From contig CBDCWC010000003.1 in the NCBI GenBank assembly GCA_965223295.1, positions 384,001 through 448,000 on the forward strand: a stretch of 64,000 bases of DNA. Direction: 5' to 3'. Origin of the DNA: Nitrospirales bacterium (lineage in GTDB: Bacteria > Nitrospirota > Nitrospiria > Nitrospirales > UBA8639). The translations under genes were made by a program, and so were the position numbers. Shown here one piece after another: positions 3,407 through 23,356 of the stretch. Within the stretch, counting starts at the first letter, position 1. Each line of letters begins with the position of its first letter. A model generated the notes under the pieces. It was not told the origin of the DNA and did not search any database. It saw nothing but the letters and a program-made list of their open reading frames with translations.

Positions 3407-3448
3407 TTGTATCTGAATAGATAAAAATTGTATCTAAAAAGATACGAA
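3407..3448. promoter_or_regulatory. Tandem dyad sites, putative enhancer (UAS) for a sigma54 activator
   Basis: ttgtatctgaatagataaaaa and ttgtatctaaaaagatacgaa, 21-bp period, each TATCT-N4-AGATA; about 105-145 bp upstream of the -24 box. Confidence 0.6.
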
Positions 3449-3568: not shown

Positions 3569-3741
3569 CGTTAAAAGGATCATCTGTTTCCTTCTTTATG
3601 CAAAAGAAAGAAGGGTTCGTGCAAATAGCCCGAAGTATTGTTTCTGATTTTCTAACCTAATTTCCTTTCCAAGACATAATATTTTGTAAATTTTCTCAAA
3701 AAACAATTTTTACATTACCACTTCACTAAAAGGAGGGAGTC

Positions 3742-4272
3742 ATGGACAAAGAATCACAAGAAATCCTAAAGCGAGTCGAGGAGCGATTGACGCGATTAGA
3801 GGCAAGCGCCACAGCGGGCCCAGCGGCAGGCGGATTCGGAGCACCTGGTGGTACGGTAGTTGATCCTGCCCCATGGGGGCCGGGCGGTGGGTTTGTTCCA
3901 CGATGGCCAGTTCCCAATCCAATAGCCGATCCTGCCCCTTGGTGGCCGGGTGGTGGGTTTATTCCACCGCGATGGCCAGTTCCCAATCCAGTAGCCGATC
4001 CCGCCCCATGGCCTCCTGGTGGGTTTGTCCCACGGTGGCCAGTTCCCCCTATTGTGGCTGATCCCGCACCATGGGGTGGCGGCTTTGGCGGCGGCACAAT
4101 TACTCGTCCGCCGATCGGTTCAATCGGTGATCCTCCCCCCATGGACTTGGGCCGGTTAAATCTTGCACAACTTGAATCATCCATGCATTCGATTAATGCT
4201 GAAAAAGCCCGTCTCGACTCCTTGGAGAAACTAATTAACAATCAAATCGGGAAACTCAAGAATCCAGGCTAA
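3742..4272 (+). CDS. Putative multi-core RiPP precursor with DPAPW/PRWPVP repeats and coiled-coil termini
   Basis: Strong RBS (aaggagggag). DPAPW at aa 41, 63, 86 and 107, DPPPM at aa 130. Directly upstream of two radical SAM genes. Confidence 0.8.
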   Translation: MDKESQEILKRVEERLTRLEASATAGPAAGGFGAPGGTVVDPAPWGPGGGFVPRWPVPNPIADPAPWWPGGGFIPPRWPVPNPVADPAPWPPGGFVPRWPVPPIVADPAPWGGGFGGGTITRPPIGSIGDPPPMDLGRLNLAQLESSMHSINAEKARLDSLEKLINNQIGKLKNPG

Positions 4273-4292
4273 CATCCACACGGAGATTCGGC

Positions 4293-4322
4293 TCAGGGCT
4301 CTATCTTCTTGATAGAGCCTGA
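4293..4322 (+). terminator. Stem-loop between precursor and maturase genes
   Basis: tcag(g)gctctatc-ttctt-gatagagcctga; no U-tract. Confidence 0.55.
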
Positions 4323-4449
4323 TCCAACATTGCAACTGGAGAGACTCGAGTAAATCTTTCACATACGCACGCTAGAGACACATGTTCATGTGAAACCGCC
4401 GTATACTTAAGTGATTTGATGACCTGTAAGGGAAAGGGATAGGTGTGCT

Positions 4450-6129
4450 ATGCCAACTATGGCGCAAAATCATACGACTAAATCGCGAAAAGTGCTTCTC
4501 ATCGGCTTCCAGGACCAAGACAATCTCGGGTTGCGTTATCTGATGTCTAACATCAATGCTTCGCATCATCAGGCCAGCATCATGACCTACGGTTCCGACC
4601 CTGATCGGATCCTAGAACGAATCCGCCAAGATGAGCCCGATGTCGTCGGATTCTCGCTTATCTTTCAGTATATGGCGCCAGACTTTAGTCAGGTGATCAA
4701 AGCGTTGCGGGAAAAGGGCGTCACTGCACATATCACCATAGGCGGGCACTACGCCAGCTTCGAGCCCAAGGAGATTCTCCGGCAGACTCCTGAACTCAAT
4801 TCCGTGGTCCGATTCGATGGTGAGACCACCCTTGTCAAACTGTTGGATAGCTTGGCCGTTGGCACAGATTGGCGAACCCTTCCGGGGATCGCATTTCGTT
4901 CGGACAACGGCGAAATCACGACTACCCCTCTCGCTCAACCCGTTGAGGACTTGGATACCCTACCCTGGCCAGATCGACAGTCGATAAATTATGAAGGGCA
5001 TTGCATGCCCACGGCTTCAATTCTCGGAAGCCGGGGATGCCCATGGGACTGCTCGTTTTGCAGTATCCGCCCTTTTTACGAGGAACAAGGAGGGAAGCTC
5101 CGTCGTCTACGCAAACCCAGAGCTGTGGTTGACGAAATGATTGATCTCCATAAAAATCGAGGAGTCCCGATTTTCTTATTTCAGGACGATGATTTCCTCG
5201 CAGGAGGAAAGCGAGCGAAACAATGGGCAGTAGACATTGCAGACATCCTCGCAGCCGAGGGTCTAAACGGGGAGATCGCGTTCAAAATCAGTTGCCGCTC
5301 GGACGAAATCGACGAATCGATCATCGAGCAATTAATGAAAGGTGGGCTCACGCACGTGTATATGGGTGTGGAGTCGGGAGACGAACAAGGCCTCCTCAAC
5401 ATGAGCAAGCGGCTAAAACCAGAAGCGCATTTAGAAGCTGGTCGAATCCTAAAGCGTTTGGGGCTATCCTACGACTTCGGCTTCATGTTGATCGATCCCT
5501 ACACAACCTTCGACAGCATTCGCACGAACATCGATTTCTTAGAGGCCTTCATTGGGGACGGCTGGTCGGTCGCGCCATTCTGCCGGATGCTGCCCTATGC
5601 CGGAACACCAATCAAGCGTAAGCTTGAGCAAGAAGGCCGATTGACAGGTACACCATTTGAGCCGGACTACAAACTTCTCGATCCAAAGCTAGATCTGTTT
5701 TACGATTGGATGGTCGAGGCATTTTACGAACGTAATTTCACCAACCAGGGATTGTGCCACATTCTCCGTGGATTACTATTTGAGGCACACCTGCGATTGT
5801 CGACCCGGAACCGAGTGAACGACGCGCAACGCGCCTACATTCACCACCTGACAGCCGTCTGCAACCGGGTTGCATGCTACACACTTCGTTCAGCCATAGA
5901 TTATATTGAGGCCACACCTCTGTCGGAGCTTAAACAGGATCGCCACTATCTAGACGGTTTGGCCGTGCATGAGAAAGAACAGGAAATGAGGCTAAATAAC
6001 GAAGTGGCACAGTACTATGAGTGGGTCCACCAAGATTTCAGCCAGGTACCGGGCCCAGTAGGCAGCTTCGAAAACTCCTGGACGTTTCACAATAATGACC
6101 GTGAAGCGGAAGGAGTGGGAGCAGCCTAA
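4450..6129 (+). CDS. B12-binding domain radical SAM protein (class B methyltransferase-like)
   Basis: N-terminal B12-type domain (NLGLRYL, PDVVGFS, IGGHYAS); SRGCPWDCSFC motif; FQDDDF; MGVESG. Confidence 0.92.
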   Translation: MPTMAQNHTTKSRKVLLIGFQDQDNLGLRYLMSNINASHHQASIMTYGSDPDRILERIRQDEPDVVGFSLIFQYMAPDFSQVIKALREKGVTAHITIGGHYASFEPKEILRQTPELNSVVRFDGETTLVKLLDSLAVGTDWRTLPGIAFRSDNGEITTTPLAQPVEDLDTLPWPDRQSINYEGHCMPTASILGSRGCPWDCSFCSIRPFYEEQGGKLRRLRKPRAVVDEMIDLHKNRGVPIFLFQDDDFLAGGKRAKQWAVDIADILAAEGLNGEIAFKISCRSDEIDESIIEQLMKGGLTHVYMGVESGDEQGLLNMSKRLKPEAHLEAGRILKRLGLSYDFGFMLIDPYTTFDSIRTNIDFLEAFIGDGWSVAPFCRMLPYAGTPIKRKLEQEGRLTGTPFEPDYKLLDPKLDLFYDWMVEAFYERNFTNQGLCHILRGLLFEAHLRLSTRNRVNDAQRAYIHHLTAVCNRVACYTLRSAIDYIEATPLSELKQDRHYLDGLAVHEKEQEMRLNNEVAQYYEWVHQDFSQVPGPVGSFENSWTFHNNDREAEGVGAA

Positions 6130-6210
6130 TGATTCACAATCGTAACCTTCACAGCCGTAACCATATCCACACCAGTAGTTGTCTCATATACTGAGAAATA
6201 CTCACTATCG

Positions 6211-8193
6211 ATGGACGTCCTTCTTGTTTCAATGCCTTTTGCTGAAGTCCAACGGCCTTCCATCGCCTTGGGCTTGCTGCAAGCAACACTGAAGGGATCA
6301 ACTATCACAAGCGAAGTGGTATACGGCAATATCAGATTTGCCGAGTCGATTGGTATAGTGGCGTACCAGGCCATGCAATCGACCCCTACTGATCATCTGC
6401 TCGGGGAATGGTGTTTCGCGGGTGAACTGTTTCGTGAATGCTGGGAACGAGACGAGGAGTACTTAGACCTTGTCCTCAATGTGCGATGCTTCGGTTTTCC
6501 GGCTGAGCTCGAACAACGAAAGGACCTGATACGCTGGGTGCGTGTCCAGAGTACCTCCTACATCGACTCTCTGGCCATGGACATCGTCGCTCGCGAACCC
6601 CGGATCGTTGGATGCAGCTCCGTGTTCCAGCAGCATTGCGCCTCCCTGGCATTACTTAAGCGAATTCGCGAATTGAGCCCAAAAACAGTCACCTTGATGG
6701 GAGGTGCCAATTGTGAAGATGAAATGGGTATCGAAACGCTGAAAATGTTCCCCTGGATAGATTGCGTTGTCTCGGGCGAAAGCGACCACATTTTCTCAGA
6801 GTTATGTCATTTCTTGCTAAATCATGGCCGTAACGTAGACCCTACCGCCCTCCCTTATGGTGCAATACTCCAATCACAGTACAAGCAAAATGGAGAATAC
6901 ACACCAAACACAGGGCCAATACCACGCCCTGTTATCAGTAATCTGGACAGCTTGCCAATACCAGACTACGAATCCTACTTCGCGACCCTCCGTGCGTCAA
7001 CGATTTCGGGAATGGTCAAGCCCGGCTTACTAGCCGAGAGCTCACGCGGTTGTTGGTGGGGTGAAAGATCCCATTGTACATTTTGTGGGTTAAACGGTAC
7101 AGGGATGGGTTTCCGCTCGAAATCACCAAAGCGAATACTCAGCGAGTTGGCCGAACTCACCAGGCGTTATGAAATACACAATGTCCAGTTCGTGGACAAC
7201 ATTCTCGATATGTCCTATCTCAAAACAGTACTGCCATCGTTGGCCGAACTAGATAACCCTTATTCGTTGTTCTACGAGACTAAAGCGAATCTTAAGAGGG
7301 ACCATGTTCAGCTTCTAGCAGACGCAGGCGTGCGATGGATTCAACCTGGCATTGAAAGTCTCAATGATGATCTCCTACGCCTCATTGGAAAAGGTAATTC
7401 TTCTGCCATGAACCTTCAACTCTTGAAGTGGTCCCGTGAGTATGGCATCGACGCATCTTGGAACATGCTTAGCGATATCCCAGGCGGATCAGATATCTGG
7501 TATAAAGAGATGGCAGAATGGTTGCCGGCAATCTTCCATCTACAACCACCAACTGGATTAATTCGAATACGATACGACCGTTTTAGTCCATACCACAAAA
7601 CTCCCCAAGCGTACGGATTGACACTCGTACCAAGTCGTGCCTATCAGTATGTCTACCCATTTCCCCCCGATACATTGATGCGACTGGCGTACTCATTCGA
7701 AAACCACAACCAGGCCGAACATATTCACCGTAGCGTACAAAACCAGCCTGGCCAACAAAAACTTCAGACTGTCATTGAAGAATGGAACGCAAATTGGAAT
7801 TCTTCTCGACCAATACTCCATGTCCATGACGAAGGCACGAAGCTTCGGGTCATTGACACACGCTCCTCTACCCGTGATACCTATTGGACCGCAGGAGAGA
7901 TGGAGGCGTCAGTGTATCGCTTGTGCGACACAGCCCAAACATCCCAAACATTGCTAAAGCAACTGTCCATGCAGTATGAAAGTGAGGTCTCATTCAACGA
8001 CATACAACCAGCAATCGACACCTTATGCAGGGCCCGAGTATTATTGCCCATCAGCGGAAAACTACTGGGTATCGGAATCAACCAACAACAGGTGAAAACG
8101 CAGCCCACATCATCGACGAGAAGTTCGGATGCGCAAACCGTGTATAACTCACAAACACAGCCATTGGTGAGAATCGAACCTGTTACTACGTAA
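6211..8193 (+). CDS. RiPP maturation radical SAM C-methyltransferase (TIGR03975-like)
   Basis: SMPFAEVQRPSIALGLL, LLGEWCF, GGANCE, SRGCWWGERSHCTFCGLN (Cx7Cx2C), YETKANL, IQPGIES, RYDRFSPY. Confidence 0.9.
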   Translation: MDVLLVSMPFAEVQRPSIALGLLQATLKGSTITSEVVYGNIRFAESIGIVAYQAMQSTPTDHLLGEWCFAGELFRECWERDEEYLDLVLNVRCFGFPAELEQRKDLIRWVRVQSTSYIDSLAMDIVAREPRIVGCSSVFQQHCASLALLKRIRELSPKTVTLMGGANCEDEMGIETLKMFPWIDCVVSGESDHIFSELCHFLLNHGRNVDPTALPYGAILQSQYKQNGEYTPNTGPIPRPVISNLDSLPIPDYESYFATLRASTISGMVKPGLLAESSRGCWWGERSHCTFCGLNGTGMGFRSKSPKRILSELAELTRRYEIHNVQFVDNILDMSYLKTVLPSLAELDNPYSLFYETKANLKRDHVQLLADAGVRWIQPGIESLNDDLLRLIGKGNSSAMNLQLLKWSREYGIDASWNMLSDIPGGSDIWYKEMAEWLPAIFHLQPPTGLIRIRYDRFSPYHKTPQAYGLTLVPSRAYQYVYPFPPDTLMRLAYSFENHNQAEHIHRSVQNQPGQQKLQTVIEEWNANWNSSRPILHVHDEGTKLRVIDTRSSTRDTYWTAGEMEASVYRLCDTAQTSQTLLKQLSMQYESEVSFNDIQPAIDTLCRARVLLPISGKLLGIGINQQQVKTQPTSSTRSSDAQTVYNSQTQPLVRIEPVTT

Positions 8194-8240
8194 AGTTGAA
8201 AAACAAAGATCCCCTGGCAAGACCACGGGGAATCGCAAGT

Positions 8241-8289
8241 TGAATCCTCGATGAGGTCTTTGGTCCTTGGCGATTCTCTCAAAAAGGCC
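8241..8289 (+). repeat. 49-bp direct repeat, copy 2
   Basis: tgaatcctcgatgaggtctttggtccttggcgattctctcaaaaaggcc. Confidence 0.85.
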
Positions 8290-8418
8290 TTTTACAACTC
8301 CCATTCCTGGATGACAAAGGCAGGAAAATCGAATGAGGAGGAAAAACATCAAGACAAAAGAGGCCGCAGACTATCGTTGGTTATCACCCACCGCTCTCAC
8401 GCTTTACTATCCCCTAAA

Positions 8419-8637
8419 AGAGCCGGTGAATAATTTGTGCGGATTGCCTAAAATGGTCTTCAGAAGACTATCATCAACAGGAGAGAACTGGTCAAAATTG
8501 CATCCAGTAAAGCCGCACCTATTTTGATGAGCGGAGCATAAGCTGAGCACGGGAAAATAGCGAGAACGCTACTGGCGGCCTTTGTAGCTTATCGAGTTAC
8601 TCGGGCGGAGTAGGCAACGGCTTTTTTCAACATTTCT
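8419..8637 (+). mobile_element. Degenerate copy of the ~190-bp MITE with a nested ~38-bp insert
   Basis: tgagcacgggaaaatagcgagaacgct...cggcttttttcaaca matches the MITE 3' half; the 5' half is diverged. Confidence 0.6.
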
Positions 8638-9405
8638 TTATGGAGAGGCGGTAATGCGGCTTTTGATCTCATCAAAGGTGGCTTTGGGAATGACATTTTT
8701 AGCCACAAGTTCTCCGCGCAAGCGATAAGGGCGATTCGACACCACTTCTTCAGCCACTTCACGGCTCAATCCTAGTGATAACACCAAATCACTGACGGAA
8801 GCCTGATTGATATTCACTAAATTTGTCGCCACTTTCGGTAGTTTAGGTAAAGTAGCCACCTTTGGTGCTTTGGGTTTAGAAGGTAAGGCAACCTTTGAGG
8901 AGACAGGTGATGAGAGTTTTGGCTTCGAAGCTACAGCATTACGCTTCGTTGACCCAGAGGATGAGGACAGCCCTTCTCTACCCGTAGGATTATTGGACTC
9001 TTTGAGTTCCTTTTTATAGCGCAAGACGGTCTTTTTCAGAGCTGCATTTTGTGACTTCACCTTCTGGTATTGGGCGGTGATCACGCGCAACTTCGCGCTG
9101 AGTTGGGATTTTTCCTGATCTATTTCCCTTTCTCGTGTCTCAAGAAGAGTCTGCTCATTACTCCGCCCCTCTTTTACGCGTTGCAATTCCGCGGTCATCA
9201 TTTCCAAATCTGTAGAAATTTTTTCGTTCAAACCCTTGAGATTTCGGACTTGTTCTTCAAGTGCTTCCTGATGCATCCGCCCCTTTTCTAACTCGGCTTT
9301 AGCCGATTCCATATCAGCCACTGAAGCCTCATAGGTACTTTTCGACACCATACACCCGGGCAGTCCAAGAATCAGCATGATGGCTATCGCAACCCACCTT
9401 GTCAT
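8638..9405 (-). CDS. Lipoprotein with coiled coil and C-terminal helix-hairpin-helix (ComEA-like) domain
   Basis: Signal peptide ending LPGC; long heptad region; VNINQASVSDL...NRPY HhH signature. Confidence 0.7.
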   Translation of the reverse strand: MTRWVAIAIMLILGLPGCMVSKSTYEASVADMESAKAELEKGRMHQEALEEQVRNLKGLNEKISTDLEMMTAELQRVKEGRSNEQTLLETREREIDQEKSQLSAKLRVITAQYQKVKSQNAALKKTVLRYKKELKESNNPTGREGLSSSSGSTKRNAVASKPKLSSPVSSKVALPSKPKAPKVATLPKLPKVATNLVNINQASVSDLVLSLGLSREVAEEVVSNRPYRLRGELVAKNVIPKATFDEIKSRITASP

Positions 9406-9605
9406 ATCGACCTCCTCATATCTCTGAACACAGAATAGTCATCCATGAGCATTCAACCTACTTTCAGGTCAGGACTTCGAAACGTCACCTATAACATAAT
9501 GATGTATTGTATCTAGAAGGTTATGTCAAGCCAACAGTTATCAAGAAGCGTGAGGCACTACAAACACGTCTTTCTCTTCCATCCTTACTTCTTACTTTTC
9601 ACGTT

Positions 9606-10400
9606 TTACCCCTCGACATACCATTGAGGCTGTCGATCCCTGAGTAAATCATTATATGGATTGATGTGTTTATTACGAGCCTCATCCACCACGATTTCAC
9701 ATGTATACAATTCCTGTTCGGTTCGCGAGGCCCGATGCACAATTTGACCATTCGGAGCCACAATTTCACTCCATCCAATAAATGACAAGGCTTCTTTGTT
9801 CCCTCGCTGTTCTTTACCGACTCGGTTGGCGGTAATTGCAAACACCCGATTTTCTAAGCATCGGGTGACCATGGCATCGGGACAATGGGGTAACACAAGA
9901 TTACTGGGATGGCAAAGAATATCGGCCCCTTTGAGAGCTAAGGTTCGAGCTGCCTCGGGATAAAACCAATCAAAACAGACCAAGAGCCCGACTTTTGCCT
10001 GACCAATGTCCCACACATGAAATCCCGTATTGCCAGGAGCAAACCAGAGGGTCTCTTCAAAAAATAGGTGGGTTTTTCGATAGGTTCCCAGATACCCTTT
10101 TGGACCAATTAACACTGCCGAATTATACACACAGTCTTGCCCCCGCTCAGCCAGCCCTACAACAACATGCAGCGCCCGGCTCCCGATCGCCTGCTCAAGA
10201 CGTTGACAGATGGAGCCAGAAGGAACATCTTCCGCCAATTCCCAGGCTTCTTCGTGAGAAACAAATTGGTATCCTGACAGTGCCAGTTCAGGAAGGACCA
10301 AGAGATCCCCTTGGAATGAATGGATAGCCTCGACTATTAATTCCAGATTCTGCTGAATCTCGCCAAACTGCGGAGCAAATTGGAAAAATCCTACTTTCAT
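9606..10400 (-). CDS. Carbon-nitrogen hydrolase (nitrilase superfamily)
   Basis: LVLPEL, YRKTHL, VCFDW (E-K-C triad); start set at MKVGFFQ. Confidence 0.92.
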   Translation of the reverse strand: MKVGFFQFAPQFGEIQQNLELIVEAIHSFQGDLLVLPELALSGYQFVSHEEAWELAEDVPSGSICQRLEQAIGSRALHVVVGLAERGQDCVYNSAVLIGPKGYLGTYRKTHLFFEETLWFAPGNTGFHVWDIGQAKVGLLVCFDWFYPEAARTLALKGADILCHPSNLVLPHCPDAMVTRCLENRVFAITANRVGKEQRGNKEALSFIGWSEIVAPNGQIVHRASRTEQELYTCEIVVDEARNKHINPYNDLLRDRQPQWYVEG

Positions 10401-10427
10401 AGTTGCAACAGATTCACATTCACTCAC

Positions 10428-10459
10428 AAAAAAAGCGGGTAGAGTTTCCCCTACCCGCC
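10428..10459 (-). terminator. Rho-independent terminator after smbP
   Basis: Minus strand gcgggtag-gggaaact-ctacccgc followed by T7. Confidence 0.75.
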
Positions 10460-10487
10460 TTTCCAGCAATATTCAAAGTTTAACCAA

Positions 10488-10844
10488 TCAATGAACCTCT
10501 TTCATATGCATCACGGCACTCTGAGCGTGCTTTGTTCCAACTTCTGCATGCCCTGCCTTACCATGAGTCACGGCTTCCATCAGCTCATGCACCCCTTCAT
10601 CCAAATGAGGATTCTTCACCTCTTTTTGTGCCGCTTGCGCATGGGTTAAGGCTTCTTGCGCATGCTCCACCAAGGCATCGGCATGCCCCTGTCCTCCATG
10701 TTCTGCCGCGCCTTCGGCATGGGCAATGGCTTCAGCTACATGAGGATTTCCATCAGCAAAGGCCGCGCTCCCCCATGTTCCGACCGTGAGTAATGCCAAC
10801 ATGCCCAACAAACCAATACTTTTCACCAATACTTCAATACGCAT
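10488..10844 (-). CDS. smbP: Small metal-binding protein SmbP-like (periplasmic, His-rich)
   Basis: Signal peptide; His recurring about every 7 residues (HVAEAIAHAEGAAEHGGQGHADALVEHAQEALTHA). Confidence 0.85.
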   Translation of the reverse strand: MRIEVLVKSIGLLGMLALLTVGTWGSAAFADGNPHVAEAIAHAEGAAEHGGQGHADALVEHAQEALTHAQAAQKEVKNPHLDEGVHELMEAVTHGKAGHAEVGTKHAQSAVMHMKEVH

Positions 10845-16552: not shown

Positions 16553-18109
16553 TTAGCGTTCTCGCTTGATTCCCAGCTTTTTTAAACGGCTCCTGAGAGT
16601 GCTAGGATTCAAGCCAAGCTGCTTGGCGGCTCCTAACGGTCCATCAATACGCCATTCACAGACTTTCAGGGCTTCTTGTATCCGAGACCGTTCCATGTCC
16701 TTCAAGTTGGTCGACGTACTGCTTACTACACGAGAGGAATGGCTCGGGAAAAAGGCATCATCAATCGTGAGCAAGTCTGAATTCGAAAGGATCATGGCCC
16801 GTTCAATAATATTTTTTAACTCCCTAATATTACCCGGCCAATGATACTCCAACAATTTTTGTAAGGAAGCGTCATCAATATCCTGGCAAGGGCGCTTGAA
16901 TTCCAGCCGGTTTTTTTCCATGAAATGTCGAACCAGTAAAGGAATATCTTGCGGCCGCTCACGAAGCGGTGGGACTTCAATGGGAAAAACGTGCAGTCGG
17001 TAAAATAAATCTGAACGAAATCGCCCTTCTTCCATGGCTTTACTCAATTCAGCGTTCGTCGCAGCAATAATTCTGACATCCACTTCCAAACTCTGAACAC
17101 TTCCCACCCGTTCAATAATTCCATCCTGCAGCACCCGCAATAATTTGGCCTGAGCTTCTAGAGGCATTTCTCCAATTTCATCTAAAAATAAGGCTCCCCC
17201 ATTGGCCAGTTCAAATTTCCCTGGTCTTAGCTGTTCCGCTCCAGTAAATGCTCCCTTTTCATGCCCAAACAATTCACTTTCCACCAATCCAGAGGGGAGT
17301 GACGCACAGTTAACCCGAACAAAAGGCTTTTCATGTCTCGGGCTTAACTCGTGGATGAACCGGGCTAGTAATTCTTTACCCGTTCCCGTTTCACCGGTGA
17401 TGAGAACCGAAGTATTGGTCGGAGCTACGGCTTGTGCTAACTCTATGATATTTTTAACCTTTTGGCTCTTTCCAATCATCGCCCCAAAATCATGCGAAAT
17501 TTTTATCTCTTCAAGTAAATAGGCATTTTCGCGGGCAAGCTTATCTCGTAAACGGCGAATTTCTTCATAGGCTTGCACATGATCAATTGCTAGTGCGATT
17601 TGTTTGGCTACCTGAGCCAAAAATTCCACGTTCTCTGGATCTGGCTTTCCAGACTCAACACTGCCGATGTTCAGAGAACCAAGACAGCTGTCACCAACCA
17701 TCAGTGGAAGGTTGATCATGCGCCCTAAGCCTTCTTCCCGATAATATGCATCCTCTAAAAACATTTGTTCTTGTTGAATATGGGGACGGATGTGTATTTG
17801 GCGATTGGCATACACCCAACCCATCGCACTACCTTCACGTGGAATGACCGCATCGCACTTCAAACGTACGATAGGCATGCTGGTCTCAACGGCATAAAAT
17901 CGAAAGGCATCAATATCTGCATGATAGAGAGTGATCCCTGCGCGCTCCCAGGAAACTATTTGTTTAATATGACCGGCAATAGCTTTCCAGAGACTTTCCG
18001 TGTCTTGCTGAAAATTGAGGACATTCGTGACCTCAAGTAGCGTTCGATAAAAGGTTTGTTTGTGAGGATTAATGGACTTGCCTGATAAGGAAGGAATATT
18101 CAATGACAC
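16553..18109 (-). CDS. GAF-domain sigma54-dependent activator (FhlA/NifA-like)
   Basis: GAF N-domain; GETGTGKE; ESELFGHEKGAFTGA; LFLDEIGE; WPGNIREL; Fis-type HTH. Confidence 0.95.
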   Translation of the reverse strand: MSLNIPSLSGKSINPHKQTFYRTLLEVTNVLNFQQDTESLWKAIAGHIKQIVSWERAGITLYHADIDAFRFYAVETSMPIVRLKCDAVIPREGSAMGWVYANRQIHIRPHIQQEQMFLEDAYYREEGLGRMINLPLMVGDSCLGSLNIGSVESGKPDPENVEFLAQVAKQIALAIDHVQAYEEIRRLRDKLARENAYLLEEIKISHDFGAMIGKSQKVKNIIELAQAVAPTNTSVLITGETGTGKELLARFIHELSPRHEKPFVRVNCASLPSGLVESELFGHEKGAFTGAEQLRPGKFELANGGALFLDEIGEMPLEAQAKLLRVLQDGIIERVGSVQSLEVDVRIIAATNAELSKAMEEGRFRSDLFYRLHVFPIEVPPLRERPQDIPLLVRHFMEKNRLEFKRPCQDIDDASLQKLLEYHWPGNIRELKNIIERAMILSNSDLLTIDDAFFPSHSSRVVSSTSTNLKDMERSRIQEALKVCEWRIDGPLGAAKQLGLNPSTLRSRLKKLGIKRER

Positions 18110-18466: not shown

Positions 18467-19756
18467 TTACAGCCAGTTCACCCGTTCGGCCGGACGGATG
18501 TAAATCGGCTCTTCCACTTGCTGCCGCACCGCTTCCTTGCCCGACTTGTTGAAGCCCAATACCGTGTCGTTATACATCTCAAACTTCCGACCGTGAATTT
18601 GGGTCTCAAACACTTTCGGCCCCGGAATGACGTCATACCGGAAGATGATCTGTTGGCTCGCTCGCCATAACTGCAGCACCGCCAACAATTCCCGGCTCGG
18701 CACCAAATACTTCTCAATGGCATTGTCCACCCCCGGCCCAAACATCTGCCGGATGTAGCCCCGCGGCGCTTGCCGCGGCGGAATGTAATACCCATTGGGC
18801 TCCGTGCCCCATTGCGGGTACAACGGCAACGCCACTTGTTCCACCCGAATCGCATAATACAATGGATTCCAGCGGTCTTCCGCCCATAACCCGTCATCGC
18901 CCACTTTGACGAGCCCTTGCAGACGGATCTTGCCCACGCACGCCGCCATACACCGCGTTTCCATCGGCTCCCCACCCGTCAGCGGATCTTTGCCCTCTAC
19001 CCGCGGATAGCAGGCAATACACTTCTCACTGACCCGGGTGGTCCCCCGATACATCGGCTTTTTGAACGGACATTGCTCCACACATTTTTTGTACCCCCGG
19101 CACCGGTTTTGGTCAATTAAGACAATCCCGTCCTCCGGCCGCTTGTAGATGGCCTTTCTTGGACAGGCCGCCAAACAGCCCGGATAGGTACAGTGGTTAC
19201 AGATGCGTTGCAGATAGAAGAAGTACGTTTCATGCTCCGGCAAGCTGCTGCCGGTCATTTTCCAGGGTTCTTCTTTCGTGAACCCCGTCTTATCCACGCC
19301 TTCGACAATGGCCCGCATCGACGTCGCCGTGTCTTCGTAGATGTTCACGAAGCGCCATTCTTGGTCCGTCGGGATGTACCCAATGGCCGCTTGGCCGATT
19401 TTGGCCCCCGCGTCAAAGATCGTCATCCCTTCAAACACCCCATACGGCGCATGGTGCTTGCGGCCCACCCGCACATTCCACACCTGCCCGCCAGGATTGA
19501 CTTGCTCAATCAACTGCGTGATTTTCACATCATAGAACTGTGGGTAGCCCCCATAGGGCTTCGTTTCCACATTGTTCCACCACATGTATTCCTGCCCTTT
19601 GCTGAATAGCCACGTCGACTTATCCGCCATCGAACAGGTTTGACACGCTAAACACCGATTGATGTTGAACACAAATGCAAATTGCCATTTCGGATGCCGC
19701 TCCTCATACGGATACAGCATCTTCCGGCCTAAGTGCCAATTATAGACTTCTGGCAT
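18467..19756 (-). CDS. nxrB: Nitrite oxidoreductase beta subunit (Nitrospira type)
   Basis: 429 aa; MPEVYNWHLGR, NINRCLACQTCSMAD, YMWWNNVETKPYGGYP, CNHCTYPGCLAACP Fe-S motifs. Confidence 0.97.
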   Translation of the reverse strand: MPEVYNWHLGRKMLYPYEERHPKWQFAFVFNINRCLACQTCSMADKSTWLFSKGQEYMWWNNVETKPYGGYPQFYDVKITQLIEQVNPGGQVWNVRVGRKHHAPYGVFEGMTIFDAGAKIGQAAIGYIPTDQEWRFVNIYEDTATSMRAIVEGVDKTGFTKEEPWKMTGSSLPEHETYFFYLQRICNHCTYPGCLAACPRKAIYKRPEDGIVLIDQNRCRGYKKCVEQCPFKKPMYRGTTRVSEKCIACYPRVEGKDPLTGGEPMETRCMAACVGKIRLQGLVKVGDDGLWAEDRWNPLYYAIRVEQVALPLYPQWGTEPNGYYIPPRQAPRGYIRQMFGPGVDNAIEKYLVPSRELLAVLQLWRASQQIIFRYDVIPGPKVFETQIHGRKFEMYNDTVLGFNKSGKEAVRQQVEEPIYIRPAERVNWL

Positions 19757-19836
19757 GGTAGTGATTCCTCCATTTGGTTATAGATGCATTCAGCATAATT
19801 AATTTGGTTACCAGATAATTCATTTTAAGATTAAAG

Positions 19837-19905
19837 GGAGGCTGGGGGGAGGTGTAAGCAATGTTTCTTTCCAGACGTCAATCAAGAAAAGAACCCCCAG
19901 CCTCC
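19837..19905. promoter_or_regulatory. nxrA-nxrB intergenic stem-loop
   Basis: 12-bp inverted repeat ggaggctggggg / cccccagcctcc. Confidence 0.55.
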
Positions 19906-19918
19906 AAATCATGATAAT

Positions 19919-22900
19919 TTACACTTTAATCTTAATGTGGTCGCCTTTGAGCCATTTCACCATGAACTCATTTTCCTGCCCCGGCGTAAACCCGGTCCGG
20001 ACCGGCTCCCACGGACCCCGGCCGCCAATGCCGCCGTCTTCCGCCTTGGTAATCCGGATGAGACATTCTTTCGGCACCGTATTGACCGCATGGTTGTCCA
20101 CTTGGTACCCAAATTTAAATTTCCACGCCACCGCATGTTTGCCTGGCAGCGAGTCGAGTTGCTGAATTGGCATCAGCCAGTCCCGCGTAAAGGCCTGTTG
20201 CGCCCCATACCGGAAGTTCGATTGATACCCCGTGTCCATGGCAATCGCCCGCCCGTCCGGCCGCGTTTCATGCCCTTTCACGGATTTGGCCGTGGCCACA
20301 TAGGGCGCATGTTTGGCCATCGTCACATGGTACGGATAGGCCGGGTTGTACTTCGCCCGGATCATCAACCGCGCCACCTTGTAATACGGGTCACTGGGCT
20401 TCCACCCCCGATACGGCCGATCCACCGGGTTCCCATCCACGTAGACATAGTCCCCGTCGTTGATGCCCCGATCTTTGGCCGCTTGCGGGTTGATATGGAT
20501 TTGATGTTCCCCGACCCCTGGCGTCCGCTTATCCATCCGATACGCATCCCCAAAGTTCGACTCATACATCTGCACCCAGTCATTCACCGACCATTGACTA
20601 TGCACCCGATGCCGCGTCTTCGGCGTGACACAATAGAACTGATACCCCTTCTCCCATAACGGATTGGAGTAGCGCTTGATTTCCTGCCACGGCAACTTGA
20701 TGTTCCGAATGGTCTTATCATCATGATGTTGCGCCGTGATCGGCACCCCATAGTCATCCGGCCGCACATACGGATTCGACGACATGATCGCATTGGGCAA
20801 GTACGGCGTCGCTTCCGTCCCTTCCCGATGCGAAATGAGGTTTTCCCCGTACTCAATGGCTTCCGGCTCCACCCGGTAATTCTCATACCGGCCCGTCCGC
20901 GTCCATTGCGGCTTCGACTCGTTGGTTTCTTCCCAGAACGGATGGCGCGGATACGTCCGGCACATCACCATCCAGCCCTTCTCTGACTTCAACATCGTGT
21001 CCACACTGTAGCCATACCCCGTGGTGCTGGCATCCAACAACCGCTGCACATACACATCCACCCGGTTGTCATAGACAAACTTGAAGTAATCCCGGAACCG
21101 CCCGTCGCCCGTCATTTCGGTCAACTTGGCCGCCACCCCGGCTACCGTATCCAGATCGTTCCGCGTGTCATATAAGGGCCGGATGCCCCCCTTCCACACT
21201 TGGAACCAGGGATTCGACACCGTCGCCGTATGCTCTGGATAGGTGAACTCCATCCACGTATTCACCCCAAACGCCACGTCATTATGATTGACGTCCGAGG
21301 TCATTTCCACATCTTGCGTCACCAACGTTTCAATGTGCGGATCCACGTTCTTCACCATGTCATAATGGTGTTTGGCGTTGTTCAACACATTCACATTGGC
21401 CACCCACCGGAATTTACTGGGGGTGGGCATATGCGTCTTCCCCGTAAACACCCGCCGGCCATACTTCGGCGTATTGACAATCAACGCCGTATCCCCATGG
21501 TTCCAATAGGCCACTTCTTCGCCATAATAGTAGCCTTTGACATGGATCTCTTTGCCATGCACCGTTGGATCCGTGGTGATCTTAAAGGGGTTCTCCCCCG
21601 TATGCGTCCCGAGCCCGCCGCCGCCCCATGGCGTGGCGTTCCAGATCCCCGCTTTATAGTTACCGGCCCAGGTATGCTGCCCCGTGCCGAATTTCCCCAC
21701 ATTCCCCGTCACAATCAACACCATCGCCGCGCCACGCGCGATAATGGTTTGATGGAAATAGTGGTTGGTGCCTTCCCCGTTGTGAATGGCCGCCGGCTTG
21801 ATCGTCCCCGAATCCCGCGCCCACCGCACAATCAGGTCCTTCGGCGCCCGATTGATTTGATGCACCGTATCCAAGTCATAGTCCTGCAGATGCACCTGAT
21901 ACATTTGCATCACCGGCATCACGTCCACCTCCCGGTTGTTCAACAACTTCACCCGGTAGGTCCCCGTCAACGCTGAGTCAATGCCGCTCTTGCGATAATG
22001 CCAGCCCACCAATTCCCGATGAATCGGCACCGCCTGATTCTTGTTCAGATCCCACACCATAAAGCCCCCCAACCGGGCCAGCTTCGCAGGATCCAACGTT
22101 TGCATTTTCCCTGAATAACTCTTACTGAAGTCCGGGAGTTGATAGTCTTTGATCACTTCCCGGGGGTCCAAGTACTGCAACGTATCCGTCCGCACCAACA
22201 ACGGCATGTCCGTGTACGCTTGACAAAAATCATGGTCATACATGTTTTCATCAAAGATGATTTTACAGGCCCCTAAAAACAAGGCCCCGTCTGTCTGTGG
22301 CCGCACTGGAATCCAGTAGTCTGCCCGATAGGCCGTCGGGTTATATTCCGGCGTGATCACCACCACCCGGGCCCCCCGCTCAATGCTCTCGAGCTTCCAA
22401 TGCGCCTCCGGCATCTTGTTTTCCACGAAGTTCTTCCCCCAGCTGGTGTTCAGCTTCGAGAACCGCATGTCATTCATGTCCACATCCGAGGCTTGCACGC
22501 CGTTCCAGAACGGATGCGCGGGGTTTTGATCCCCATGCCACGTATAATTCGACCAATACCGGCCCCCTTGCGCTTGGTCCGGCTTGACTTTGCGAATGTA
22601 GGTATCCAGCAACGCCCCGCAGCCCCCATTCATCCGGGTGATCCCCATTTTCCCAATCACCCCCAAAATGGGCATCCCCGCCCGGAACTTAAAGCAGCGC
22701 GTGGCCGCCCCTTTGCTCATCTCAATCATTTCCGGTGGATAGCCTTGCTCCCGCATCCGACGGGCTCCCGCTTCCCCCGAATACCGCTCGGCGATGATGA
22801 TCATCGCTTTGGCCAGGTACGTAAACGCCGTATCCCAGCTCACCCGCAACATGTCATCCAAGTACCGCGCGTTAAACTTATATTTCGTCATCACCGCCGG

Positions 22901-23356
22901 CGTAAACTCCGGACTGCCGGCATCCATCCAGGCCTTCCAGCCCCGCCGCATCAACGGCCCTTTCAGCCGATACGGCCCATACACCCGCCGATGCATCGTG
23001 AACCCCTTCAGACACATCCGCGGATTATGCGCAAACGTCCCCCGGTTGCCGTAGAGATCTTCGTAGGTTTGATGGTCGTAGTTTTGCTCCACCCGCATGA
23101 CCACCCCGTTGCGCACAAACGCCCGGATTCGGCAGGCATGCGTGTCATTCGGGGAACAACACCACGTAAACGAGCTGTCATAGCGATATTGATCGTGATA
23201 CACCCGCTCCCAGGACCGGTCGGGATACTCCCCCAGGGGATTGCCCACTTCGATGACCGGCTGCAGCGCCGTCAAGGCCAGCGCCTTGTCCGCTAAGGCC
23301 ACCGCCGCTACCGTGCCGGCGGAGACCTTTAAAAATTGCCGTCTAGAAAGAAACAT
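19919..23356 (-). CDS. nxrA: Nitrite oxidoreductase alpha subunit (periplasmic, Tat-exported Mo enzyme)
   Basis: 1145 aa; SRRQFLK twin-Arg; CSPNDTHAC Fe-S motif; NYTWHGD; adjacent to nxrB. Confidence 0.97.
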   Translation of the reverse strand: MFLSRRQFLKVSAGTVAAVALADKALALTALQPVIEVGNPLGEYPDRSWERVYHDQYRYDSSFTWCCSPNDTHACRIRAFVRNGVVMRVEQNYDHQTYEDLYGNRGTFAHNPRMCLKGFTMHRRVYGPYRLKGPLMRRGWKAWMDAGSPEFTPAVMTKYKFNARYLDDMLRVSWDTAFTYLAKAMIIIAERYSGEAGARRMREQGYPPEMIEMSKGAATRCFKFRAGMPILGVIGKMGITRMNGGCGALLDTYIRKVKPDQAQGGRYWSNYTWHGDQNPAHPFWNGVQASDVDMNDMRFSKLNTSWGKNFVENKMPEAHWKLESIERGARVVVITPEYNPTAYRADYWIPVRPQTDGALFLGACKIIFDENMYDHDFCQAYTDMPLLVRTDTLQYLDPREVIKDYQLPDFSKSYSGKMQTLDPAKLARLGGFMVWDLNKNQAVPIHRELVGWHYRKSGIDSALTGTYRVKLLNNREVDVMPVMQMYQVHLQDYDLDTVHQINRAPKDLIVRWARDSGTIKPAAIHNGEGTNHYFHQTIIARGAAMVLIVTGNVGKFGTGQHTWAGNYKAGIWNATPWGGGGLGTHTGENPFKITTDPTVHGKEIHVKGYYYGEEVAYWNHGDTALIVNTPKYGRRVFTGKTHMPTPSKFRWVANVNVLNNAKHHYDMVKNVDPHIETLVTQDVEMTSDVNHNDVAFGVNTWMEFTYPEHTATVSNPWFQVWKGGIRPLYDTRNDLDTVAGVAAKLTEMTGDGRFRDYFKFVYDNRVDVYVQRLLDASTTGYGYSVDTMLKSEKGWMVMCRTYPRHPFWEETNESKPQWTRTGRYENYRVEPEAIEYGENLISHREGTEATPYLPNAIMSSNPYVRPDDYGVPITAQHHDDKTIRNIKLPWQEIKRYSNPLWEKGYQFYCVTPKTRHRVHSQWSVNDWVQMYESNFGDAYRMDKRTPGVGEHQIHINPQAAKDRGINDGDYVYVDGNPVDRPYRGWKPSDPYYKVARLMIRAKYNPAYPYHVTMAKHAPYVATAKSVKGHETRPDGRAIAMDTGYQSNFRYGAQQAFTRDWLMPIQQLDSLPGKHAVAWKFKFGYQVDNHAVNTVPKECLIRITKAEDGGIGGRGPWEPVRTGFTPGQENEFMVKWLKGDHIKIKV

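Follow-up and report, generated by a model that had tools for sequence, protein, structure and literature searches.

A conserved three-gene cassette of a DPAPW-repeat protein and two B12 radical SAM enzymes as a candidate peptide- or protein-modification system

The stretch of DNA analyzed here, which we call the window, comprises 64,000 nucleotides from a Nitrospirales bacterium (assembly GCA_965223295.1, contig CBDCWC010000003.1, positions 384,001 to 448,000), and near its start it encodes a 176-aa protein with Pro/Gly/Trp-rich repeats led by the motif DPAPW (3742–4272), followed by a 559-aa B12-binding radical S-adenosylmethionine (SAM) enzyme, rSAM1 (4450–6129), and a 660-aa radical SAM enzyme, rSAM2 (6211–8193). 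Unless stated otherwise, coordinates are those of the window and features lie on its + strand. The three genes are a strictly conserved unit, inherited together without others, and the association of a repeat protein with two B12 enzymes points to an undescribed system that modifies a ribosomally made peptide or protein. In the reading that we favor and consider probable, the three genes are a self-contained modification cassette in which the repeat protein would be the substrate, rSAM2 would C-methylate it, and rSAM1 would add a second modification. A reading made earlier from the sequence alone (the sequence-only reading) had found the precursor motif to be unlike those of characterized peptides that are ribosomally synthesized and modified post-translationally (RiPPs), and we likewise found no relevant mention of the DPAPW motif and no description of this cassette in the literature searched; the supplementary tables of published surveys might list the cassette as an unclassified cluster.

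To our knowledge, some of the most demanding chemistry on peptides is the work of B12 radical SAM enzymes, and we know of only a handful of peptide substrates for them. The cassette is a minimal, portable unit that pairs a TIGR03975 enzyme with an unnamed B12 clade (at least 120 close database clusters for rSAM1) and an unnamed substrate family (213 for the repeat protein), and its hosts include hard-to-culture soil Acidobacteriota, Rokubacteria and Nitrospira. A unit this small and self-contained is directly testable by co-expression, which would assign a function to a large clade mis-annotated as "BchE-like/YgiQ" and could reveal a new modification of a Pro/Trp-rich motif, or show that nitrifiers and soil bacteria use a modified protein in their physiology.

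A strictly conserved three-gene unit

A scan of one-genome-per-species contigs gave 25 loci with the repeat protein, or 26 counting the window. Their labels are Pyrinomonadaceae, other Acidobacteriota, Candidatus Angelobacter, Terriglobia, Thermoanaerobaculia, Bryobacterales, Solibacteraceae, Nitrospira and Rokubacteria, and two further metagenome-assembled genomes are labeled Alphaproteobacteria and Clostridia. The rSAM1 gene follows the repeat-protein gene at all 24 loci with downstream DNA, with 74–79% identity to the rSAM1 of the window, the remaining contig (L016) ending at the precursor gene. The rSAM2 gene in turn follows rSAM1 at 23/23 loci that reach past rSAM1 (60–66% identity), one contig (L029) ending inside rSAM1; three of these 23 rSAM2 genes are cut by a contig end and one is truncated. 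An independent search found one more complete cassette (genome G410), with a 145-aa precursor carrying two motifs. The sequence-only reading had noted that two co-oriented radical SAM genes, one with CxxxCxxC and one with Cx7Cx2C, follow the repeat gene, which holds, and it had considered that homologues of the enzymes might turn up beside no repeat gene; what we see at these loci is the opposite.

Each locus carries a single precursor copy, and all-against-all clustering of the flanking ORFs (open reading frames) of the 26 loci found no further gene in more than five of them, those that are shared occurring among close relatives. The median pairwise identity across 20 cassettes rises from 0.61 in the precursor through 0.69 in rSAM2 to 0.82 in rSAM1, where the minimum is 0.74, and the identities of the three genes co-vary (r of 0.79–0.90 over 190 pairs, which are non-independent). 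The cassette of the window is no closer to the other Nitrospira-labeled one (L013) than to cassettes from Acidobacteriota or Rokubacteria. A search of 60 genomes related to that of the window (36 from the same genus) found neither precursor nor cassette, and among 401 genomes sampled from the Acidobacteriota-type phylum, rSAM1 orthologues with the cassette occur in 2, the seed genome counted. From these distributions we conclude that the cassette is a rare unit that appears to have been transferred horizontally and inherited as a block.

The repeat-protein gene is preceded, a few bases 5′ of its ATG, by a Shine-Dalgarno-like sequence (AAAGGAGGGAG, 3728–3738). The 176-aa ORF with a ribosome-binding site, three DPAPW units of 21–23 aa, a fourth DPAPW and a final DPPPM is present as the sequence-only reading described it, and to that description we can add 213 homologues at E ≤ 0.01 in a database search and an excess of differences at third codon positions. 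Neither Pfam nor NCBIfam contains a family that matches the protein at E ≤ 0.01; 120 homologues among the matches listed have no Pfam domain and, where they are named, are called "hypothetical protein," and the sole match in a protein atlas search was the protein's own unnamed Acidobacteriota cluster (score 0.87). Close homologues differ at codon positions 1/2/3 by, for example, 4/4/28, 9/4/39 and 14/7/46 nucleotides, and in the closest homologue pair 24 of the changed codons are synonymous vs 7 that are non-synonymous. This third-position excess argues for purifying selection on the + frame, and the antisense 171-aa ORF at 3726–4241, which overlaps the gene, is thus presumably a by-product. 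By the pattern of its substitutions, then, the + frame is a real gene under purifying selection. One could suppose instead that the repeat ORF arose by chance in repetitive, G+C-rich DNA or has no function, as the length of the overlapping antisense ORF and the recurrence of antisense ORFs at 18 of the 26 loci might suggest. The + frame, however, is open at 26/26 loci with conserved non-repetitive ends, a ribosome-binding site is present, and substitutions are concentrated at the third positions of the + frame; this supposition is effectively refuted.

The protein has a helix at each end and repeats between them. The predicted N-terminal helix (residues 5–22, 3754–3807, ILKRVEERLTRLEA) is amphipathic and heptad-patterned with the consensus LKxLEERLTRLEA, and all 26 sequences of an alignment share R15, L16, R18 and E20; it is a candidate leader or docking segment. 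The repeat region (3862–4074), which we delimited with Tandem Repeats Finder, a repeat search and motif statistics, contains three units that run from DPAPW to IA (residues 41–62, 22 aa), from DPAPW to VA (63–85, 23 aa) and again from DPAPW to VA (86–106, 21 aa), followed by the fourth DPAPW at residues 107–111. In the DNA, Tandem Repeats Finder reports a period of 66 with 2.8 copies, 82% matches and a score of 236 at 3862–4047, and the repeat search finds four copies at a spacing of 66 nt, the DNA units being 82–87% alike. The DPPPM at residues 130–134 leads into a second heptad-patterned helix, so that the C-terminal segment (residues 126–170, 4117–4251) consists of GDPPPMD and this helix. 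It is a candidate follower, docking or oligomerization segment and the most conserved block of the protein in the same alignment, with D130, P131, P133, D135, Q143, L144, H149, A153, R157, L158 and E162 invariant.

Proteins of the family are 145–230 aa long, and motif statistics over 121 of them (569 instances, with the D, P and P positions fixed by the search pattern) give the family motif P-[VI]-[VAGS]-D-P-[APG]-P-[WFY], present 2–6 times per protein and most commonly 5 times. Position −2 of the motif is V or I in 544 of the 569 instances, and position +4 is W, F or Y in 443. In the central region of the 121 proteins Pro makes up 21% of residues and Gly 17%; Cys and Glu are absent, and Lys nearly so. 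Except in the window's copy, the spacing from one motif to the next is irregular, and the units have no conserved cleavage motif at their flanks.

The two radical SAM enzymes

By its profile score rSAM2 is a member of the family that NCBI names for RiPP C-methylation. On TIGR03975 ("RiPP maturation radical SAM C-methyltransferase") it scores 697.6 bits against a cut-off of 281.85 and covers model positions 1–604 of 606, with a search of the genome giving the same score, and among Pfam families it matches PF04055 with 59.9 bits and PF02310 with 19.1 bits, the latter below the cut-off of 32.1. Its cysteine motif at 7051–7086 (C281-x7-C289-x2-C292, CWWGERSHCTFC) is invariant in 112 TIGR03975-type sequences. 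No PDB sequence matches rSAM2 at E ≤ 0.001, and its identity to any representative outside the cassette clade is at most 47%. An AlphaFold2 model of rSAM2 (pLDDT 93.3) matches OxsB, TsrM, TokK, CysS and MgmA in Foldseek, and with the model of rSAM1 described below it shows both enzymes to have the predicted B12 plus radical SAM fold. The window's genome encodes a second TIGR03975 paralogue (contig 3, 1098034–1099854; L010 7930–9876; 622.8 bits), 34% identical to rSAM2, which lies directly after a gene for pterin-4a-carbinolamine dehydratase. We considered it as a parallel system and set it aside, there being no recognizable precursor or DPA-type peptide nearby.

The C-terminal part of rSAM2 (residues ~535–620, 7813–8070) is predicted by the AlphaFold2 model to form a winged-helix-like β3-α3 domain, with strands at 536–540, 545–549 and 558–561 and helices at 563–571, 578–588 and 595–607, which is the topology of a RiPP recognition element (RRE). 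The sequence-only reading had suggested an RRE here, and the predicted topology agrees with it, but matches to the RRE-type family PqqD (PF05402) are all sub-threshold. When 14 C-terminal segments were isolated and searched, PqqD appeared sub-threshold in 3 (best E 0.0031), each other Pfam family matching one member, and among 70 full-length members of the rSAM2 family there were 7 matches to Fe-ADH and 5 to PqqD. A profile of the domain gave only chance-level matches among PDB sequences, and the PqqD family was not found in the window's own genome. By predicted topology, the C terminus of rSAM2 is a likely, though still putative, RRE. A complex prediction of rSAM2 with the repeat protein returned a score of 0.01 (mark 0.32) and is evidence neither way.

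The second enzyme of the pair, rSAM1, belongs to an unnamed and very highly conserved clade. It matches PF02310 and PF04055, and its CxxxCxxC motif at 5038–5061 (C197-x3-C201-x2-C204, GCPWDCSFC) is invariant across 29 aligned sequences; its best 120 homologues are 73–96% identical to it. The sequence-only reading had assigned TIGR03975-type enzymes to the system, and this is borne out for rSAM2 but not for rSAM1, which falls below the curated cut-off of all 22 NCBIfam families that it matches, including BchE (125.4 bits against 481), HpnR (119.6 against 650), ApyD (103.3 against 750) and TIGR03975 itself (58.5 against 281.85). The AlphaFold2 model of rSAM1 (pLDDT 81.2) comprises a Rossmann domain, a barrel and, at the C terminus, a helical bundle (helices within 412–526), with no winged helix, and Foldseek places OxsB first among solved structures (TM 0.67), followed by TsrM, CysS, TokK, AprD4 and MgmA. 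In sequence, its similarity to MgmA (PDB 9ccb) is distant (E 1.8e-10).

Alternatively, the repeat protein might be the substrate while one or both enzymes perform a chemistry other than methylation, such as a Trp or Pro cross-link, a ring contraction, a rearrangement or an epimerization; C-methylation would then not be what defines the class. In favor of such chemistry, no methyltransferase equivalog accommodates rSAM1, OxsB is the structure that it matches best and the dehydratase AprD4 is matched too, an aromatic residue stands at motif position +4 in 443 of the 569 instances, and rSAM1 is unusually conserved (the median pairwise identity of 0.82 given above). On the other hand, rSAM2 scores high in a family that takes its name from C-methylation, and both enzymes also closely match the structures of TsrM, TokK, CysS and MgmA, all methyltransferases according to their PDB titles. 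We regard this alternative as a real but minor possibility.

The NCBIfam matches of rSAM1 bear on a further alternative, in which the repeat protein serves as scaffold, chaperone or regulator for enzymes whose substrate is a lipid or small molecule, such as one of hopanoid- or tetrapyrrole-like kind. That BchE and HpnR are the best matches of rSAM1, that the coiled-coil-like ends are the most conserved parts of the repeat protein, and that genes for an acyl carrier protein and a ketosynthase lie upstream in the window would all fit. Yet rSAM1 falls far short of the BchE and HpnR cut-offs, the acyl carrier protein and ketosynthase genes stand beside the cassette at 0 of the 25 other loci, rSAM2 is in a peptide-modifying family and carries the RRE-like domain, and a near-invariant 8-residue motif in variable copy number has the look of an iteratively modified substrate. 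We judge a role of this kind to be improbable.

More distant homologues of rSAM1 were also inspected. In genome G230 (L043) a 74-aa ORF (7654–7878, − strand) lies directly upstream of an rSAM1 homologue (5985–7628, − strand) with 37% identity to rSAM1, and four database relatives of the 74-aa protein share with it an invariant PGRLVMDPAML block that resembles the PGGxVVDPAPW at the start of the repeat region. A profile comparison of this protein with the precursor family was not significant (probability 0.6%), and the genomic context of only one such protein is known. As a weak lead to what rSAM1 recognizes, the G230 pair may be a sister system that shares a V-x-D-P-A recognition motif. An rSAM1 homologue in genome G099 (41–43% identity) was rejected as a related peptide system because it has no DPA-type peptide nearby.

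Substrate, chemistry and product

The mechanism that we propose for the cassette starts with rSAM2, which would hold the repeat protein through its C-terminal winged-helix (RRE-like) domain, docking on one of the conserved helices. With methylcobalamin and a 5′-deoxyadenosyl radical, it would then place a methyl group on an unactivated carbon in a side chain of each P-[VI]-[VA]-D-P-A-P-W, most likely on the near-invariant Val/Ile that stands two positions ahead of the Asp, or else on a proline. The most conserved gene product of the three, rSAM1, which has no RRE-like domain, would install on this motif a second radical modification of another kind, whether a further methylation or, in the manner of OxsB, a rearrangement or cross-link that adds no methyl. 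The number of motifs (2–6) would set the number of modified sites per molecule. Because no protease or exporter is linked to the cassette and both terminal helices are conserved, the product would either remain a modified protein or large fragment or be processed by housekeeping functions, and we lean slightly toward an intact modified protein, rather than a cleaved peptide, as the final product.

Several observations weigh against this proposal. First, rSAM1 fits no named NCBIfam family, which makes methylation by rSAM1 a guess, and its nearest solved fold, that of OxsB, is not a methyltransferase. Second, PqqD, the one Pfam family to match the rSAM2 segment itself, reaches 13.9 bits where the cut-off is 23.4, with an E value of 0.071. 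Third, one Bryobacterales locus (L034) keeps a precursor with a single motif, VVDPPPW (7941–8321), and an intact rSAM1 (8387–10066), but of rSAM2 it has only the C-terminal 225 aa (10165–10842, corresponding to residues 405–634 and including the RRE-like domain), so that the catalytic part of rSAM2 is not always retained. This remnant could reflect decay, or its RRE-like domain could serve rSAM1. Fourth, no linked protease, transporter or exporter is conserved in the 26 cassettes, whose flanks were not individually scanned against Pfam. Finally, the terminal helices rather than the repeats are the most conserved parts of the repeat protein, which would also fit a structural or scaffolding protein.

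The last two of these observations matter equally for the multi-core RiPP that the sequence-only reading had put forward. In a classical system of this kind the N-terminal helix would be the leader and the C-terminal segment the follower, and the DPAPW units would be modified cores that unlinked proteases cut out and that are exported as small bioactive peptides. The repeats and the co-encoded enzymes stand; what does not follow is a protease or exporter that travels with the cassette, and in conservation the terminal helices equal or exceed the repeats. A repeat number that varies and internal duplication of recent date are usual in multi-core precursors, the cassette includes a TIGR03975 enzyme that bears an RRE-like domain, and a precursor with a repeated motif modified by a radical SAM enzyme has a precedent in TvgA/TvgB (PMC9062424). 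Against this, the Tvg and Mpc clusters carry both a protease and an exporter (PMC9062424, PMC10849626), whereas none is conserved in the 26 cassettes; the spacers outside the window's copy are irregular with no conserved cleavage motif flanking the units; and there is a single precursor copy per locus. On balance we think it unlikely, although far from negligible, that the units are excised cores. Under the general definition of a RiPP, a co-encoded precursor-like protein and enzymes are present and a linked protease is absent.

Among known systems, we take PoyB/PoyC of the proteusin polytheonamide and BotRMT1-3 of bottromycin to be B12 radical SAM C-methyltransferases that are filed under TIGR03975. 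The cassette resembles proteusin and bottromycin systems in that rSAM2 is a full-length, high-scoring TIGR03975 member with an invariant Cx7Cx2C, encoded beside a putative ribosomal substrate. It differs in that the window's precursor has no NHLP, nitrile-hydratase-like or Nif11 leader, which places it outside the proteusins; in that the conserved cassette contains no epimerase, YcaO, protease or exporter; and in that rSAM2 has as obligate partner an unrelated enzyme that is also of the B12 radical SAM kind. MgmA, the methyl-coenzyme M reductase glutamine methylase, is likewise a B12 radical SAM enzyme, one that acts on a folded, functional protein, and it is a structural match of both cassette enzymes. 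It is distant from them in sequence, however (the E value given above for rSAM1, no sequence match to rSAM2), and the substrate candidate in the cassette is a small dedicated repeat protein in the same operon.

Two further comparisons draw on published reports. The clavusporin mpc cluster encodes the precursor MpcA, the B12 radical SAM enzyme MpcB, the DUF5825 protein MpcC, an S9 peptidase and a transporter (PMC10849626). Clavusporins carry multiple C-methyls on Val, Ile, Thr and Pro of a hydrophobic ribosomal peptide made with a leader and a follower, and are described there as a non-antibiotic, physiological product; Mpc clusters are reported from Actinobacteria only and have precursors of 33–39 aa (PMC10849626). 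The B12 radical SAM logic and the candidate multiple C-methylation of a peptide with leader- and follower-like ends are shared with this system. The mpc-type partner set (DUF5825, peptidase, transporter), in contrast, is not conserved here, no extra gene occurring in more than 5 of the 26 loci, with the limit on Pfam scanning of the flanks stated above; the proteins are 145–230 aa long and there are two B12 enzymes. In the poly-cyclopropylglycine system TvgA/TvgB, the precursor has a repeated TVGG motif, each repeat of which is modified by a radical SAM enzyme; TvgB was found by mapping of IPR023867, which is not a B12 enzyme family, and the cluster has genes for an Fe/2OG oxidase, a peptidase and a transporter (PMC9062424). 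A short motif repeated several times in the precursor is common to the two systems, whereas the radical SAM family, the TVGG motif, and the oxidase and peptidase/transporter genes on the Tvg side set them apart.

A bolder version of the proposed mechanism, which we offer tentatively and do not expect to hold in full, is that the cassette represents a new class of B12-radical-SAM-modified repeat proteins, in which rSAM1 would perform an undescribed radical transformation on V-x-D-P-A and the product would work intact, held by its terminal coiled-coil helices, and not as a cleaved antibiotic. Were this true together with the G230 pair, V-x-D-P-A recognition would be a wider rule for the rSAM1 enzyme clade.

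Neighborhood of the cassette in the window

Upstream of the repeat-protein gene, in an A+T-rich gap of 1.27 kb, lie two tandem copies of a palindrome (TTGTATCT-N5-AGATA, 3407–3448), 21 bp apart and about 300 bp 5′ of the gene, which may be an operator. Just 3′ of the repeat-protein stop is a hairpin (4293–4322) with nine G-C-rich pairs plus three, a TTCTT loop and no T-run. From sequence and fold it is a possible attenuator or processing site. We considered a family-wide conserved attenuator and rejected it, since hairpins of comparable strength occur at some loci only (L017, L019, L024, L029 and L035).

The cassette is bracketed by two direct copies of a dispersed repeat of ~70–130 nt. The left copy (2787–2853) is 84% identical to the right copy (8241–8307), which lies 5454 bp away and 48 nt after the rSAM2 stop, and the right copy has a 7-pair stem (GGTCTTT/AAAGGCC) followed by a T-run. 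There are at least five copies, all on the same strand of the same contig, further ones lying at 379391, 1184553 and 1185938 of the window's contig 3. The repeat is not a tRNA and matches no Rfam family; it could represent an intergenic element that carries a terminator, or else the scar of a recombination event.

Farther upstream are genes for an acyl carrier protein (462–725) and a FabF-like ketosynthase (722–1855, below equivalog cut-offs), together with an overlapping 224-aa ORF (1801–2475) that belongs to no family and was not found in 40 same-genus genomes. The absence of this ORF from those genomes suggests that the acyl carrier protein, the ketosynthase and the ORF are a second accessory unit beside the cassette, and it also means that no empty site can be defined for the cassette. 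We rejected the acyl carrier protein and ketosynthase as parts of the system because they are absent from all 25 other loci. Downstream of the cassette, on the opposite strand, lies a nitrilase/C-N hydrolase-like gene (9606–10469, − strand). A similar gene with 35% identity is found at one other locus (L012, 13131–13931, − strand), and its presence at 2 of the 26 loci is probably a coincidence.

On the − strand, the window also encodes a beta subunit (18467–19756, 429 aa) and an alpha subunit (19919–23356, 1145 aa) of a type II dimethyl sulfoxide (DMSO) reductase-family enzyme, with a sigma-54 activator beside them (16553–18109); all three score below NCBIfam cut-offs. The subunits at 18467–23356 are consistent with a Nitrospira-type nitrite oxidoreductase, NxrAB, and on these NxrAB-like genes the assignment of the DNA to a nitrite oxidizer in the sequence-only reading is plausible but not proven. 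Between these genes and the cassette, a gene at 10488–10844 (− strand) encodes a 118-aa protein with a signal-peptide-like start and a repetitive body rich in His, Ala and Glu, which looks like a small periplasmic metal-binding protein.

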